The notes under the pieces: generated by a model | What the model saw: the letters and a program-made list of their open reading frames with translations, nothing else | Told to the model about the DNA's origin: nothing | Databases searched by the model: none | DNA from: Octopus vulgaris | Taxonomy: Eukaryota | Assembly: GCA_951406725.2 (NCBI GenBank) | Contig: OX597817.1 | Location: 58,404,001-58,468,000 of the forward strand | Length of the DNA: 64,000 bases | Direction of reading: 5' to 3' | Made by a program: the position numbers and the translations under genes | Part shown: in pieces, positions 10,170-24,303 of the stretch | Position numbering within the stretch: the stretch's first letter is position 1 | How the letters are laid out: each line of letters begins with the position of its first letter

Positions 10170-10272
10170 ATGTATCAGTTGGGTCTGATATTGCTTTGTG
10201 TTAGTTTCTGCTCCATCTTCAGACCAACGGCTAGCTTTTGTTATGAACAAAATGCCAACACGGAATTCACAA
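10170..10272 (+). CDS. Beta-microseminoprotein (PSP94/MSMB-like) gene, coding exon 1
   Basis: ATG, MYQLGLILLCVSFCSIFRPTAS (signal-peptide-like) then FCYEQNANTEFT; phase-1 donor A|GTAAGT. Confidence 0.85.
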
Positions 10273-10289
10273 GTAAGTCTTGAAAGCTC

Positions 10290-10665
10290 TTACCCTTTAT
10301 TTGTTTCAGTCATTGGACAGCAGCCATGCTGTGATGCCGCCTTGAAAGGTTTTAGTCGAAAGAAATCAGCGACGTCAGTGCTTATTTTAAAGTCTGGTAC
10401 TTACCTCTCGCTCTCTTTTGCTGAAACCACTAAGTTAAGGTGACGTAACTACACTAACACCGGTTGACAAGCGTTGTGAAGTGACAAACAGAAACACAAC
10501 GACACACAAACATACATACAGTCATACGCAGTTTTTGCCTACCAAATTCATTCAGAAAGCTTTGGTTAGCCCAGTACTGTAGAAGAAGACATTCACCGAA
10601 GGTGCCACGCAGTGGGAATGAACTCAAATCTATGTGGTTTCAAAGCGCGCTTCGTAACCACACTG
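10290..10665 (-). mobile_element. Diverged CORE-type SINE in intron 1
   Basis: Similar to 16085-16542 along its length. Confidence 0.75.
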
Positions 10666-10984
10666 TTTGTTCCTGGCTGAGAATATATATATTTGTTTTT
10701 ATGTAAGGTTTTTTTTTATGTGGAGTAACAATACAAGAAATTTAACTTTAAACTGCAGTATTACTCAATACCTTATGTAGGATGCATATCTATTGTAGTT
10801 TTGAGAGAGGAAGGGTGACAGTGACTTCGAAATTTTGGCCTACTACTCTCCGTCGAACTGTGATACATCTGGGTTCTTCTTATAACACAGATTGATGATG
10901 TCATGAAAGCAGAAATTTCGAGATCACTATCATTGCTGCTTCTTGTAAAAGTATATATATATGTATATATATTTTCCGAATTTG

Positions 10985-12040
10985 TGTATGTATGTATGTA
11001 TGTATGTATGTATGTATGTATGTATGTATGTATGTATGTATGTATGTATGTATGCATGTATGCATGCATGCATGCATGTATGCATGCATGCATGTATGTA
11101 TGTATGTATGTATGTATGTATGCATGTATGTATGTATGCATGTATGCATGCATGTATGTATGTATGCATGCATGCACGCATGTATGTATGTATGTATGTA
11201 TGTATGTATGTATGTATGTATGTATGCATGCATGCATGTATGTATGCATGTATGTATGTATGCATGCATGTATGTATGTATGCATGTATGTATGTATGCA
11301 TGTATGTATGTATGTATGTACGCATGTATGTATGCATGTATGTATGTATGTATGCATGTACGTATGTATGTATGTATGTATGTATGTATGTATGTATGTA
11401 TGTATGTATGCATGCATGTATGTATGCATGTATGTATGTATGTATATATATATATATATATATATATATATATGTATATATATAAATATATATGTATATA
11501 TATATATATATATATATATACATATATATACATATATGTATACATATATACTTACACACACACACATACACACATATATACATAAGAAATTAAAGATGGG
11601 AAATGCACACACTTTACGTAGCTTTAATATAATTTTTAATATATCTTGTATTGTGCTTGTCGACCGGTTTCGCTTTCGTTATTCATGACATTAAAATTTA
11701 TTTAAATATGTATTTTCTCTAGACGAAATATTTTGGTCCATGTTGTGTGCAAAATTTATGAGTGAATGTTTCAACAAACATATATATATATATATATATA
11801 TATATATATATATATATATATATATATATATATATATATATATATATATATATATATATATATATGTATATATATATATATATATATATATATATATATA
11901 TATATATATATATATATATATATATATATATATATATATATATATATATATATATATATGTATGTATATATATATATATACATACATGCATATATATATA
12001 TATATATATATATATATATATGGATGTATGTATGTATGTA
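10985..12040. repeat. (TATG/CATG)n and (TA)n arrays
   Basis: Directly visible. Confidence 0.9.
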
Positions 12041-12453
12041 TGAGTAGCGAACTGCTGCCAATGAGATATTTCATTTTATCCCAACTACTGATTCGCAGCT
12101 TTTACCACAACTACGACAGTTAATGCAATGGCTGACCCACGACACCGTCACCGTGTTTATATTTGTGTCTTCTCAGCTCACCAATAGAAAGCCAACATTT
12201 ATAACACAATTGTCAGACATGTTCTTTCAAGTAGTGAAGGTTCACTATTAGCTTGCTTTAGTTCATGTTTCCTAGAAACTGACGGAAGTAGCCCTTCGTT
12301 GCCAACCTCATTATTAATCATTCTATATCTCTCTCCATCTATCTATCTATCTATCTATCTATCTATCTATCTATCTATCTATCTATCTATCTATCTATCT
12401 ATCTATCTATCTATCTATCTATCTATCTATCTATCTATCTATCTATCTATCTA

Positions 12454-13013
12454 AACACTTTCCTCTCTGGTCAATCTCTCATCAACTTCTTCAAGTATCA
12501 CTTGAAGAGGAAAGTGAGAGTAGAGAGGCAAGTTTTGTCTAGTGAATGTTTTAAAAAAAGATGGGTGAATGTAGCAAGGATGGCACGTATGAATGACGAA
12601 GCCACCTTGACTATGATTCTATGAACCATAAAAATTAATACATAGAGTTGCTTATTTGCAAAAAAAAAAATAAAAGAAAGAAATATAACATGTGACTTCA
12701 TTGACCGAGGTTACCGTGGTCTTTTCCGTAGGCTTTTCCTTCCACGGGTAAACCTCACCTGTCCTCCCCTTTACACTTCATATTGACATTTCTGTGATAA
12801 CGATCCCTATTGATCAATTTTTTTCCTCTCCCCCTTTTTTTTAACCACCCCCTTTTTTTTGTCCTCCTTCTCTCCTTTTACGATCCCTTTTGATCGACTC
12901 CCCCTTTTTTTATTTTTATTTTTAATTTTAATTTTTTTTTTACCTTCAAAAGAAAAGCTCTACCTTGTAATTTGTTCTATCTGTGTGCAGCCCTGTGTGG
13001 CTAATAAAGAAAC
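12454..13013 (+). mobile_element. 5'-truncated L1/Tx1-like LINE 3' end within an (ATCT)n array
   Basis: Peptide NTFLSGQSLINFFKYHLKRKVRVERQVLSSECFKKRWVNVARM..* (stop 12622-12624) resembles a Tx1 ORF2 C-terminus; T-rich 3' UTR; AATAAA 13003-13008; (ATCT)n on both sides. Confidence 0.6.
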
Positions 13014-13081
13014 ATATCTATCTATCTATCTATCTATCTATCTATCTATCTATCTATCTATCTATCTATCTATCTATCTAT

Positions 13082-21679: not shown

Positions 21680-22320
21680 GAAACGGAAAATGGAGTTCGC
21701 AAGAATCTTTATTTAGGAGAACGATCGTTTCAACCCTTCCTGCTTCTGTCCTCTGTGGGCGGGATATTGTACAAATGACTGTGTTGCTTCCTCCAGTGCA
21801 GAATGCATCTCATCGGGCGTCTTGTTTGAAATAATATATACTTCGCTAAATATCCTCGGTTTCGTTTCACATGACCACGTATATAGATATGTGTATATGT
21901 ACGTCTATATATGTGTTCATGTCAAGACGTGTTTACTTATCTTTCTTCATTTTATCTTTTAATTGTTTTCTTTTGAAACTATTTTATTTTTTTATCTTTT
22001 ATTACTTTACTCTGTGTCAGTTACTCACAATGAACTGCAACCGGACCCATTAATCGGTTACAATCTGGAAATTGTATCCATTCCCTATCATTGCAGTCAA
22101 CACTCCACTGGCGACAACAACATGCCAAGCGAAACGAAGTAGATTTGGCGAGGTATCTTATTTAAAACAAGACACCCGATGTGATACATTTTCTTGCACT
22201 GGTGGATGCAGCACAACCAGTTGCATAGTAACCCGTTTGCAAGGGACAGATGCAAGATGGTGGGTCGAAACGATCGTTGTGTTGAATAAAGATTCTTGCT
22301 AACTCCATTTTCCATTTCCC
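21680..22320. repeat. Diverged inverted repeat (~190-bp arms), Penelope-like remnant
   Basis: 21680-21870 is the reverse complement of 22130-22320 (e.g. GCAAGAATCTTTATT..AACGATCGTTTC). Confidence 0.7.
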
Positions 22321-22321
22321 T

Positions 22322-23510
22322 CATACATACATGGTGGTTGTCTACTCCTTATGCAGAGTTTGGCCACCTCCTGTACCTACACCTTAGAACCATCATGACA
22401 TCTAATGTGGCTTAAAAGCATCTAATGTGAAAAGACACCCACATAGATTGCATATCCGATATGGACCACCAAGTGTTGCAGTTAAGTTCTGATCTTTGTG
22501 GATCTTAGAATGTCTTTTGAGGTTTCCGTTAGATTTGCAAACCTCCTGGCATACATTGCATTCAAAGGTATGGATAGACATACAGGCAGAACAGTTGGTG
22601 GAGGTTCGTCTTCCATGGGTTCGCAAATGAGATTTGAGCCCAGCAAAAGAAAGGCATGTTCTGTCACAAACTGTGCACACAAAAAGGTCATTGTGATTCG
22701 CCTTCTCGATTGTAATATTCTTCCTTAAATCTTTTTTGAGTCTTGCATGCGTTATCCTGGCCTCTTCAAACGCTTTCACTCCACTCCACACAGCTCGATC
22801 CGAAACAAGGATTTCTATGTCCTCTGGATCTATTCCAAATTCATGTTAGTCCTAATGCCGTCCTTAGGCTTCTTTTGGGGTTTACACCAATAGCGTTTCT
22901 CCTCTGCAAGTTCACCATAAAACAGCTGTTTGGGTGTGCGTTCATCCCCCATTCGAACAGTAAGGCCACACCATCTCATTTGGTTTTACAAAATCATTGC
23001 TTTAATTGAGGTGATGCCTGCAGGTGCAAGGACATCTGTGTTTGGAGTAAAAGAACTCTATTTAATGTTTAAAATGCGATGAAGGCATTTTTGGTGGAAT
23101 TCTTCTAACAATTTGAAATGTCTTTCATAACATGTCCTTGTTTTAGAAGAACACAACAGAGATGGTAAGACAAAGGATTTGTAAAGAACCAACTTTGTAT
23201 TGTTGTTTATATGTTGCTGACACCAAACACGCGACTCCAAGCTACCAAATGCTTGTGCTGCCATTTGAATTCGCAGGTGTATTTCTGTAGCTAGATTCCC
23301 ATCTTTTTGTACTTTCAAGGTAGATGAAAGTACCAAGGTCAGGTCGCTCTTGAGTGCTAGTGGTAGCATGTAATCCAGTACAACCTGTTGCATGGCCGGG
23401 TCGTCGGTGCCTAAACTGGCAACCCCACCAGGCTTGCTTGATGAGGAGGGTGTTTGTTAGCTACCCTGAGGGATGAAAAATAAGACCCGTCAAAAGGGCA
23501 GAGGAACTTA
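22322..23510 (-). mobile_element. Internally deleted RTE element with C-terminal C2H2 fingers
   Basis: UTR-like sequence joined to EIHLRIQMAAQAFGSLESRVW..FHQKCLHRIL; C-terminal CTVCDRTC..HLRTH and CNVCQEVC..HSKIH; short (ATGT)n tail. Confidence 0.75.
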
Positions 23511-23663
23511 AACATACATAATACATGCATACATACATACATACATACATACATACATACATACATACATACATACATACACACACACACACATATAATA
23601 CACATGCATGTATATGTGTATGTGATGTGATACAGATATCTATATCACTAAACAGATGGAAGT

Positions 23664-23910
23664 GGAGGCGCGTGGCTTAGTGGTTAGGGTGTCAGAATCA
23701 TGATCGTAAGATTGTGGTTTCGCTTCCTGGACCAGGCGACGCGTTGTGTTCTTGATCAAAACACTTCATTTCACGTTGCTCCAGTCCACTCAGCTGGCAA
23801 AAATGAGTACCACTGCGATGTACTGGCATCCCGTCCAGCTAGGGAACACATACGGCATAGAAACCGGGAAACCGGGCCCATGAGCCTGGCTAGGATTTAA
23901 AAGGGCACAT
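23664..23910 (+). mobile_element. tRNA-derived SINE (second family)
   Basis: GGAGGCGCGTGGCTTAGTGGTTAG A box and GGTTTCG.TTCC B box; copy at 33689-33930. Confidence 0.8.
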
Positions 23911-24137
23911 TTATTTTAAACCTCACTCAAGTCATACACATAGGTGCGTGATGGGCTATGTGCTTGCTTGTGTATGTGTGTATGTATGCGTGTGCGTGTG
24001 TGTGTGTGTGTTGTATACTCAAATAGCAGATAATTGAGAGATACTTTGCTTTGTTTTTTGTTTTTTTAAAGAAACGGTTCCTCTTGTCCGATTGGTTTAT
24101 CTTTCTACTTTTTTTCTTTTTTTGTGTGAAATTTCAG

Positions 24138-24303
24138 GTTTGGTGTGAACAGCGGTCTGCACGTGGTGCCAAAACAGTGCAAGATGCTGAAGGACGGCTG
24201 CACTCCACACTATGTTCGTCGGGACAACGAAAACGTTGATTGTGTTTCGGGTACACCGATAATGATCGACGATTCCGCTCATAAGAAATCAGACCACGAC
24301 TAA
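24138..24303 (+). CDS. Beta-microseminoprotein-like gene, terminal coding exon 3
   Basis: Polypyrimidine tract plus TTTCAG acceptor; FGVNSGLHVVPKQCKMLKDGCTPHYVRRDNENVDCVSGTPIMIDDSAHKKSDHD, TAA at 24301-24303. Confidence 0.9.

Follow-up and report, generated by a model that had tools for sequence, protein, structure and literature searches.

The locus described here raises two questions: do three short exons scattered along one strand form a real gene of the PSP94/beta-microseminoprotein (MSMB) family, and what might its product do in an octopus? The window, a 64,000-nt stretch of Octopus vulgaris DNA, had been proposed in a first-pass annotation to carry such a gene hidden from the open reading frame track. 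Recomputed from the DNA, the proposed exons, GT-AG sites, phases and 129-aa product are all correct (Table 1). The three exons sum to 390 nt (103 + 121 + 166 nt), and the spliced frame consists of 129 codons followed by TAA, in agreement with the earlier translation. Polypyrimidine tracts are present in both introns. Neither tblastn nor a scan for CxxCxC..CC found a second copy of the gene within the 64-kb window. Contig sizes suggest that the transcript possibly starts 5' of the TATAAA.

Table 1. Features of the octopus gene in window coordinates.
Feature	Positions	Strand	Remarks
TATAAA ahead of the start codon, perhaps part of a promoter	9994..9999	+	sequence only
Coding exon 1, first one observed	10170..10272	+	start codon, phase-1 donor
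Content of exon 1: predicted signal peptide (residues 1-22), then 12 mature residues including Cys24	10170..10272	+	
Intron 1	10273..14150	+	3878 nt, GT-AG, phase 1, rich in microsatellites
Coding exon 2	14151..14271	+	Cys43, CxxCxC, CC, conserved N-C-T sequon (residue 65)
Intron 2	14272..24137	+	9866 nt, GT-AG, phase 2; microsatellites and retroelement remnants
Exon 3, coding part	24138..24303	+	C-terminal domain (Cys89, 96, 110), 19-residue tail, TAA
3' UTR, ~1.8 kb, with short interspersed repeats	24304..~26115	+	from read depth and contig ends; end approximate
ATTAAA, likely polyadenylation signal	26102..26107	+	where contigs stop; inferred

The spliced three-exon gene is real. The stretch is present in 16 RNA-like runs from six studies, at shares of 0.60-0.81 (four runs aligned); the run types are guessed, none being on record as RNA, and the runs carry no tissue labels. 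Splicing support takes the form of contig ends, with reads covering the exon 2-3 junction side. Junction reads had been proposed as a check at first pass. The exon 2-3 junction was seen directly in one run, X10, where the sequence beyond a contig end at 24137 matches 14241-14270 at the end of exon 2. Contigs of all four aligned runs (X1, X5, X10 and X17) break at the exon 3 acceptor, and those of X1, X5 and X17 carry 599-693 unaligned letters beyond 24137. X17 had been picked as a DNA-like control and likewise broke at the acceptor, so the comparison stands without a DNA control. In X10, the spliced contig has a depth of 16,511, versus 23.5 for the intron-exon contig, whereas the exon 3 contigs of X1, X5 and X17 have depths of 52, 22 and 8; contig depth is a crude gauge, yet X10 and the other runs still differ several hundred-fold. 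Summed depth in X10 exceeds 9,000 in all bins of 24120-26095, then drops to 611 and to ~60-90, and the contigs stop on the 3' side at 26103 (X10), 26109 (X17), 26114 (X5) and 26060 (X1). A chance joining of exons is excluded because of the X10 junction and because the product shows 0/129 differences to the independently annotated O. vulgaris protein CAI9721052.1 (UniRef100_A0AA36AUF9, beta-microseminoprotein-like).

The gene is hidden only with respect to an unspliced reading frame track, since the identical protein is in GenBank. The product differs at 1 of 129 positions from O. sinensis XP_029635716.1 and at 6 from O. bimaculoides XP_014783575.1, both RefSeq entries named beta-microseminoprotein, and annotations of the gene exist for three Octopus species and for Argonauta (Argonauta hians GAB1600800.1). 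These Octopus and Argonauta records are automatic annotations. The gene is already known as an ordinary annotated family member and carries little weight as a gene discovery, as the protein is in the database and its orthologues bear the family name. The literature searched, including by six of the accession numbers, yielded no functional work on the octopus protein.

The translation contains ten cysteines after residue 22 (24, 43, 61, 64, 66, 73, 74, 89, 96 and 110), including the CxxCxC and CC motifs that had been noticed at first pass, and two further cysteines in the leader. The leader has a hydropathy peak of 2.69 and a predicted helix at residues 2-15, and residue 1 of mature chicken MSMB3 aligns to residue 23; cleavage after residue 22 and secretion are predicted. 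The predicted mature protein has 107 residues (12 kDa, pI 8.6) and a cationic core (14 K/R versus 8 D/E). The charged C-terminal tail is real (residues 111-129) and mildly acidic (4 D/E, 2 K, 2 H), but it is not special: tails of at least 17 residues occur in 22 of 36 ten-cysteine relatives, such tails are common among the invertebrate relatives, and model pLDDT is below 50 at residues 126-129. The tail was rejected as a novelty on these grounds. A CG[FYI]G motif is found in 45/75 relatives and takes the form CCGFG here.

Assignment to the PSP94/MSMB family is right: the spacing of the cysteines, the profile search, the predicted fold, the intron phases and the public annotation all point to it; gene and family assignment together are close to certain. 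In mature numbering the cysteines lie at 2, 21, 39, 42, 44, 51, 52, 67, 74 and 88, compared with 2, 12, 30, 33, 35, 42, 43, 57, 66 and 80 in chicken MSMB3, according to PMC8167871. The spacing C-x17-C-x2-C-x-C-x6-CC and the final C-x13-C equal those of MSMB3, and the C-x17/18 core that defines the family is present. A search against a PSP94 model had been suggested at first pass. With Pfam, PF05825 (PSP94) is the only family match and scores 15.6 bits (E 0.024), below the curated 22 bits, whereas a profile of 37 relatives searched against the PDB returns six family members among seven matches (E 3.4e-12 to 1.4e-7; the seventh E 0.62). The single sequence reaches only E 0.05-0.14 in the PDB. 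Single exons scanned against Pfam gave no PSP94 match, and two matches on exon 3 alone (E 0.07-0.09) were rejected as chance. The PF05825 model is weak for invertebrate members, and its threshold is operational rather than a biological definition: 32 of the 71 relatives scanned match at E<=0.1 and 8 pass (71 of 75 representatives, four long repeat proteins being left out), and Lingula XP_013393152.1, named beta-microseminoprotein, likewise falls under the cut-off (20.2).

The predicted model (pLDDT 83.6) has a two-domain beta fold, with a Greek-key N-domain and a C-terminal beta-sheet domain. Foldseek ranks 1-4 and 6 are MSMB3, PSP94, SSP-2 and porcine MSMB (best E 3.9e-4, TM 0.44 by query), and the best VIA match is MSMB3 (6RWC; Z 7.7, rmsd 2.9, 77 aligned). 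Atlas gives a TM of 0.64 to an MSMB cluster. Intron phases 1 and 2, before and after the exon with CxxCxC and CC, match 6/6 vertebrate genes, as computed from a published supplement. The intron positions differ from those of chicken MSMB3: the second intron is shifted by one codon towards CC, and the first lies some seven codons farther away from the second cysteine. A tree was built from 42 rows, namely 36 of the 75 representatives with all ten cysteines, 39 being left out, plus six others; none of the rows is an MSMP. The octopods form a starred clade (100/99), and the octopods with three Logan rows receive 94/75, not starred. Deeper forks are open, and therefore no sister group is claimed.

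The octopus protein has its ten-cysteine spacing, predicted fold and intron phases in common with vertebrate MSMBs (PSP94, 3IX0/2IZ3; MSMB3, 6RWC; habu SSP-2, 6IMF chain B). Conversely, its identity to them is ~20%, it scores under the Pfam threshold, and it has three coding exons instead of four, a longer C2-C21 hairpin, the 19-residue tail and a CCGFG motif typical of invertebrate relatives. It also carries the N-C-T sequon, whereas MSMBs are described as non-glycosylated in PMC8167871. Phe4 of human PSP94, counted from the first cysteine, is replaced by Glu in Octopus and Gln in Argonauta. According to PMC8857485, which gives an F24G result, human PSP94 needs this residue for CRISP binding.

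The best explanation is a small, disulfide-locked protein that has no enzyme activity, binds other molecules in the secretion of a gland or epithelium and is most likely protective, and taken as a whole this account is somewhat more probable than its alternatives combined. That the protein is a non-enzymatic binder in a secretion is likely; that protection is its main role falls slightly short of an even chance. The protein would be secreted as a two-domain beta-sheet structure locked by disulfides, which by homology would pair C2-C52, C21-C44, C42-C51, C39-C74 and C67-C88 (mature numbering). One tissue would produce it in bulk and others at a low level. An exposed edge strand may bind partner proteins or microbial surfaces, as reported for human PSP94, snake SSP-2 and chicken MSMB3. 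For instance, PSP94 binds CAP proteins via strand beta-1 and has antifungal activity, and SSP-2 binds triflin (PMC8857485), while MSMB3 is an antibacterial egg-white protein (PMC8167871). Neither the name nor the accessions occur in the supplementary data published with the skin-mucus and ink proteomes of O. vulgaris, which may reflect naming; this absence speaks mildly against those secretions. Further observations run counter to this account: the core is well conserved (74/88 with Argonauta, 58/88 with the relative P0005), whereas MSMB is described as fast-evolving, and Phe4 has become Glu or Gln. The missed Pfam cut-off, the weak single-sequence PDB matches, the modest best Foldseek match, a VIA Z under 8 and the rank of tick CirpT1 among the family matches also weigh against it.

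Several other accounts deserve weighing against the secreted binder. A small vWC/SVWC-like domain from outside the MSMB family, in which the cysteine spacing arose by convergence, would fit the missed PSP94 cut-off; tick CirpT1 (SVWC-like) takes Foldseek rank 5 with a VIA Z of 5.3, and Atlas TM to an SVWC cluster is 0.59. This account is barely credible: all ten cysteines follow MSMB spacing, profile E values reach down to 3e-12, intron phases match, MSMB structures come first in both fold searches, and 0 of the 71 scanned relatives pass SVWC or VWC. Octopus saliva contains CAP proteins, and the gene product could instead protect the animal from itself by binding and neutralizing the CAP/CRISP-type proteins of its saliva, in the manner of snake small serum proteins. 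SSP-2 is the best profile match in the PDB (E 3.4e-12), and PMC8857485 describes the SSP-2/triflin binding mode as conserved in PSP94-CRISP. However, SSP-2 alone among the listed PDB chains has precursor length (109 aa), and its alignment takes in the leader, which raises its score; the Phe4 replacement also weighs against such self-protection, which is highly improbable. A conserved secreted MSMP-like signalling ligand acting on an internal receptor is unlikely, although it has more in its favour. Like MSMP/PSMP, the octopus gene has three coding exons and intron phases 1 and 2, is more highly conserved and carries a C-terminal extension, but an upstream exon is possible. Against P0005, the mature core keeps 58/88 residues versus 5/16 aligned in the signal peptide. 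A Euprymna gene described as being under constraint and separate from those of Loligo has a near-C-terminal Ser-Ala (PMC3268785, section 10), as seen here at 121-122; however, this Ser-Ala is just two residues and is absent in Argonauta and P0005. A snail MSP was reported from brain (PMC10036341). The top Atlas match of the whole protein is prostate-associated microseminoprotein, but the margin is 0.95 versus 0.94 and with the core alone MSMB is ahead (0.90 versus 0.86); for this protein, Atlas scores cannot tell MSMP and MSMB apart. The very high level in one sample would also suit bulk secretion better.

The first-pass annotation had named a reproductive signal or a defence protein as candidate roles, the former by analogy to squid beta-MSP. 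Loligo (Doryteuthis) pealeii beta-MSP (GQ906708) is of the same family and animal class as the octopus protein and has been described as a contact pheromone of the egg capsule (PMC4500399, PMC3268785). An octopod counterpart, made in female reproductive glands and deposited on eggs, where it would serve as a social or reproductive cue perceived by touch, would fit the recurrence of family members in egg coats and gonads and the strongly uneven level between runs. It would also fit the single protein cluster returned per octopod species by word-index searches; these returned only octopod proteins or six matches, and the squid protein was not among them. Such a counterpart is quite unlikely, as none of the 20/75 representative clusters looked up is named as squid beta-MSP, a survey reports that not every MSMB-like sequence in cephalopods is an orthologue of the others (PMC3268785, section 10), the 16 RNA-like runs from six studies suggest expression beyond one female gland, and no octopus paper was found in the literature searched. 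A touch-tasted cue on eggs, skin or den, mass-produced by one gland in solitary brooding octopuses, is doubtful to a similar degree. If true, it would be an octopus contact pheromone parallel to the squid aggression signal, driving another behaviour, and a protein ligand for sucker chemoreception. The gene is a modest lead, as the family is behavioural in squid and one run has the spliced transcript several hundred-fold deeper than three others.

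The octopus MSMB gene (family PSP94/MSMB; Pfam PF05825) is real, correctly placed in its family and already annotated. Its three coding exons (table) join into a spliced frame of 390 nt, made up of 129 codons and a closing TAA, in which ten cysteines come after residue 22; the introns, of 3878 and 9866 nt and in phases 1 and 2 respectively, are filled with microsatellites. The exon coordinates, GT-AG sites, phases and ten cysteines claimed by the first-pass annotation are thereby upheld in the sequence. Immediately 5' of the start codon, a pyrimidine-rich stretch (10146-10169) ends in AG, a possible splice acceptor that would join exon 1 to a non-coding exon lying further upstream. 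No second copy of the gene was found in the 64-kb window by tblastn and a CxxCxC..CC scan.

Single sequences give weak evidence for the MSMB family. The PF05825 search proposed by the first-pass annotation scores the octopus product at 15.6 bits, under the cut-off of 22, and the Octopus bimaculoides protein at 14.1 bits, with no match for Argonauta; PDB matches have E values of 0.05-0.14, the top three all MSMB. A full search returned 75 representatives at E<=0.001. Nineteen of the 20 looked up bear names (bivalves, gastropods, chiton, Lingula, amphioxus), and ten are called beta-microseminoprotein(-like) by at least one source; rotifer relatives were also found in another search. When the representatives were scanned, minus four long repeat proteins, 32/71 matched PF05825 and 8/71 exceeded the cut-off. 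Against the PDB, a profile of 37 sequences finds six solved family members (E 3.4e-12 to 1.4e-7) and no non-family match with E < 0.6. The predicted model (pLDDT 83.6, pTM 0.58) shows nine strands besides a leader helix, and its Foldseek ranks 1-4 are chicken MSMB3, human PSP94, habu snake SSP-2 and human MSMB (best E 3.9e-4). VIA also places MSMB3 top (Z 7.7, rmsd 2.9, 77 aligned starting at residue 23), with the SVWC-like tick protein CirpT1 close behind (Z 5.3); because these scores are moderate and CirpT1 is close, the fold alone would not settle the family. Atlas, counted as one source, agrees. The cysteine spacing matches that of chicken MSMB3, and the intron phases equal those of 6/6 vertebrate genes at slightly shifted positions (computed from PMC3268785, supplement 2). 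Taken together, Pfam and profile matches, fold, cysteine spacing and intron phases make the product almost certainly an MSMB family member, as first proposed.

The gene had also been called hidden, which does not hold. Exon 3 alone as query returned two candidates, both named beta-microseminoprotein (O. bimaculoides, Argonauta hians). The first matched cluster includes O. bimaculoides XP_014783575.1, O. sinensis XP_029635716.1 and O. vulgaris CAI9721052.1, from which the window product differs at 6, 1 and 0 of 129 positions, respectively. Thus, "hidden" reflects only an ORF track without splicing. No study of the gene came to light in literature searches by family with octopus or cephalopod and by six accession numbers; their reach did not extend to journals behind a subscription, to supplements on bioRxiv or to most tables of expression, which may matter. 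The family name and accessions have no matches in the supplements of PMC10138644, PMC10142993 and PMC12607849 (one supplement being just 393 characters).

The gene is transcribed, and exon 3 is spliced to exon 2. The interval 24000-24500 is present in 20/24 listed runs, 16 of which, from six studies, are guessed to be RNA, with none on record as such. Contigs of four public runs (X1, X5, X10 and X17; tissues not given) were compared over 23600-26700. In X10, a loose contig end before 24137 reads 14241-14270, the end of exon 2, and the join is the predicted junction with one ambiguous G; the splicing check is positive for the exon 2-3 junction. In X1, X5 and X17, the contig likewise begins at 24137 and carries 599-693 further letters, of which exons 1 and 2 would explain just 223, leaving room for a possible 380-470 nt or so of 5' UTR, or else for an upstream exon. 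Cover extends to about 26110, where three runs' contigs end beside ATTAAA at 26102, which puts the length of the 3' UTR at about 1.8 kb. Run X10 shows a depth of 16,511 on exon 3 versus 23.5 for the intron-exon contig, and the exon 3 contig depths in X1, X5 and X17 are 52, 22 and 8, which suggests very high expression in one sample kind, contig depth being a poor measure of expression.

Sequence comparison indicates that the core of the product is conserved, with identity of 74/88 to Argonauta and 58/88 to the Logan protein group P0005. The latter is likely another cephalopod; its signal peptides agree with octopus at about one third. Across P0005 and P0080-P0084, the mature core is near-invariant (87-88/88) and signal peptides are variable (15-17/23). 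An N-C-T sequon (residue 65, exon 2) lies inside CxxCxC in 8/8 octopod and Logan sequences checked and is rare elsewhere (2/67 representatives). Whereas a passage of PMC8167871 describes MSMBs as non-glycosylated, the octopus product carries this putative glycosylation sequon. It also has Glu in place of F4, which human PSP94 needs for CRISP binding. The charged C-terminal tail, earlier singled out as an extra feature, is ordinary: 22/36 ten-cysteine representatives have at least 17 residues past the last Cys (longest 334).

A function can be proposed by analogy. The product would be secreted, with a predicted mature protein of 12 kDa, cationic, two-domain beta and with five disulfides; it would be put out in bulk by a gland and, by analogy with relatives, may act through binding rather than catalysis. 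A protective role in a secretion ranks first among the candidate functions. Precedents reported within the family are CAP-protein binding and antifungal activity for PSP94 (PMC8857485), antibacterial activity for egg-white MSMB3 (PMC8167871) and USM as a marsupial egg coat member (PMC3268785). A ligand like MSMP (prostate-associated microseminoprotein), which shares the number of three coding exons, would rank second.

A squid-like egg cue, ranked third, would follow the squid beta-MSP pheromone claim, which appears in passages of PMC4500399 and PMC3268785; the octopus gene shares its family with squid beta-MSP and is at most a putative orthologue. According to section 10 of PMC3268785, orthology does not hold across all of the protostome sequences, and a Euprymna gene under constraint is distinguished from those of Loligo. 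Excerpts elsewhere place family members in sea-cucumber gut regeneration (PMC5638244), starfish testis (PMC9759900), snail brain (PMC10036341) and malformed cuttlefish larvae (PMC5085775). Since the family is put to so many uses, membership does not predict a pheromone. Venom self-protection would rank fourth; SSP-2 is reported, in part of PMC8857485, to bind triflin.

Coding exons of the octopus MSMB gene and transposon-like features in the window
Feature	Coordinates	Strand	Remarks
Coding exons 1, 2 and 3	10170-10272, 14151-14271, 24138-24303	+	GT-AG sites, pyrimidine tracts
Non-LTR retrotransposon	52715-55831	-	1039-codon open frame (endonuclease + RT domains)
Upstream frame of the same retrotransposon	55663-56601	-	313 codons, weak Torus/zinc-finger match
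RT copies akin to the 1039-codon element	48351-50636, 62946-63998		
Second non-LTR element	42271-44847	-	859-codon open frame (endonuclease + RT domains), 55% GC island
RT remnant similar to second element	6044-6607		
Antisense C2H2 zinc-finger remnant, intron 2	22405-23456	-	Pfam zf-C2H2, 28 bits

Judged by eye, the zinc-finger remnant looks like the 3'-terminal part of a non-LTR element. In 4/4 runs, sequence from other loci piles up to very high depth on short interspersed repeats in the 3' UTR (24720-25050 and 25430-25800) and in intron 2 (23690-23900).
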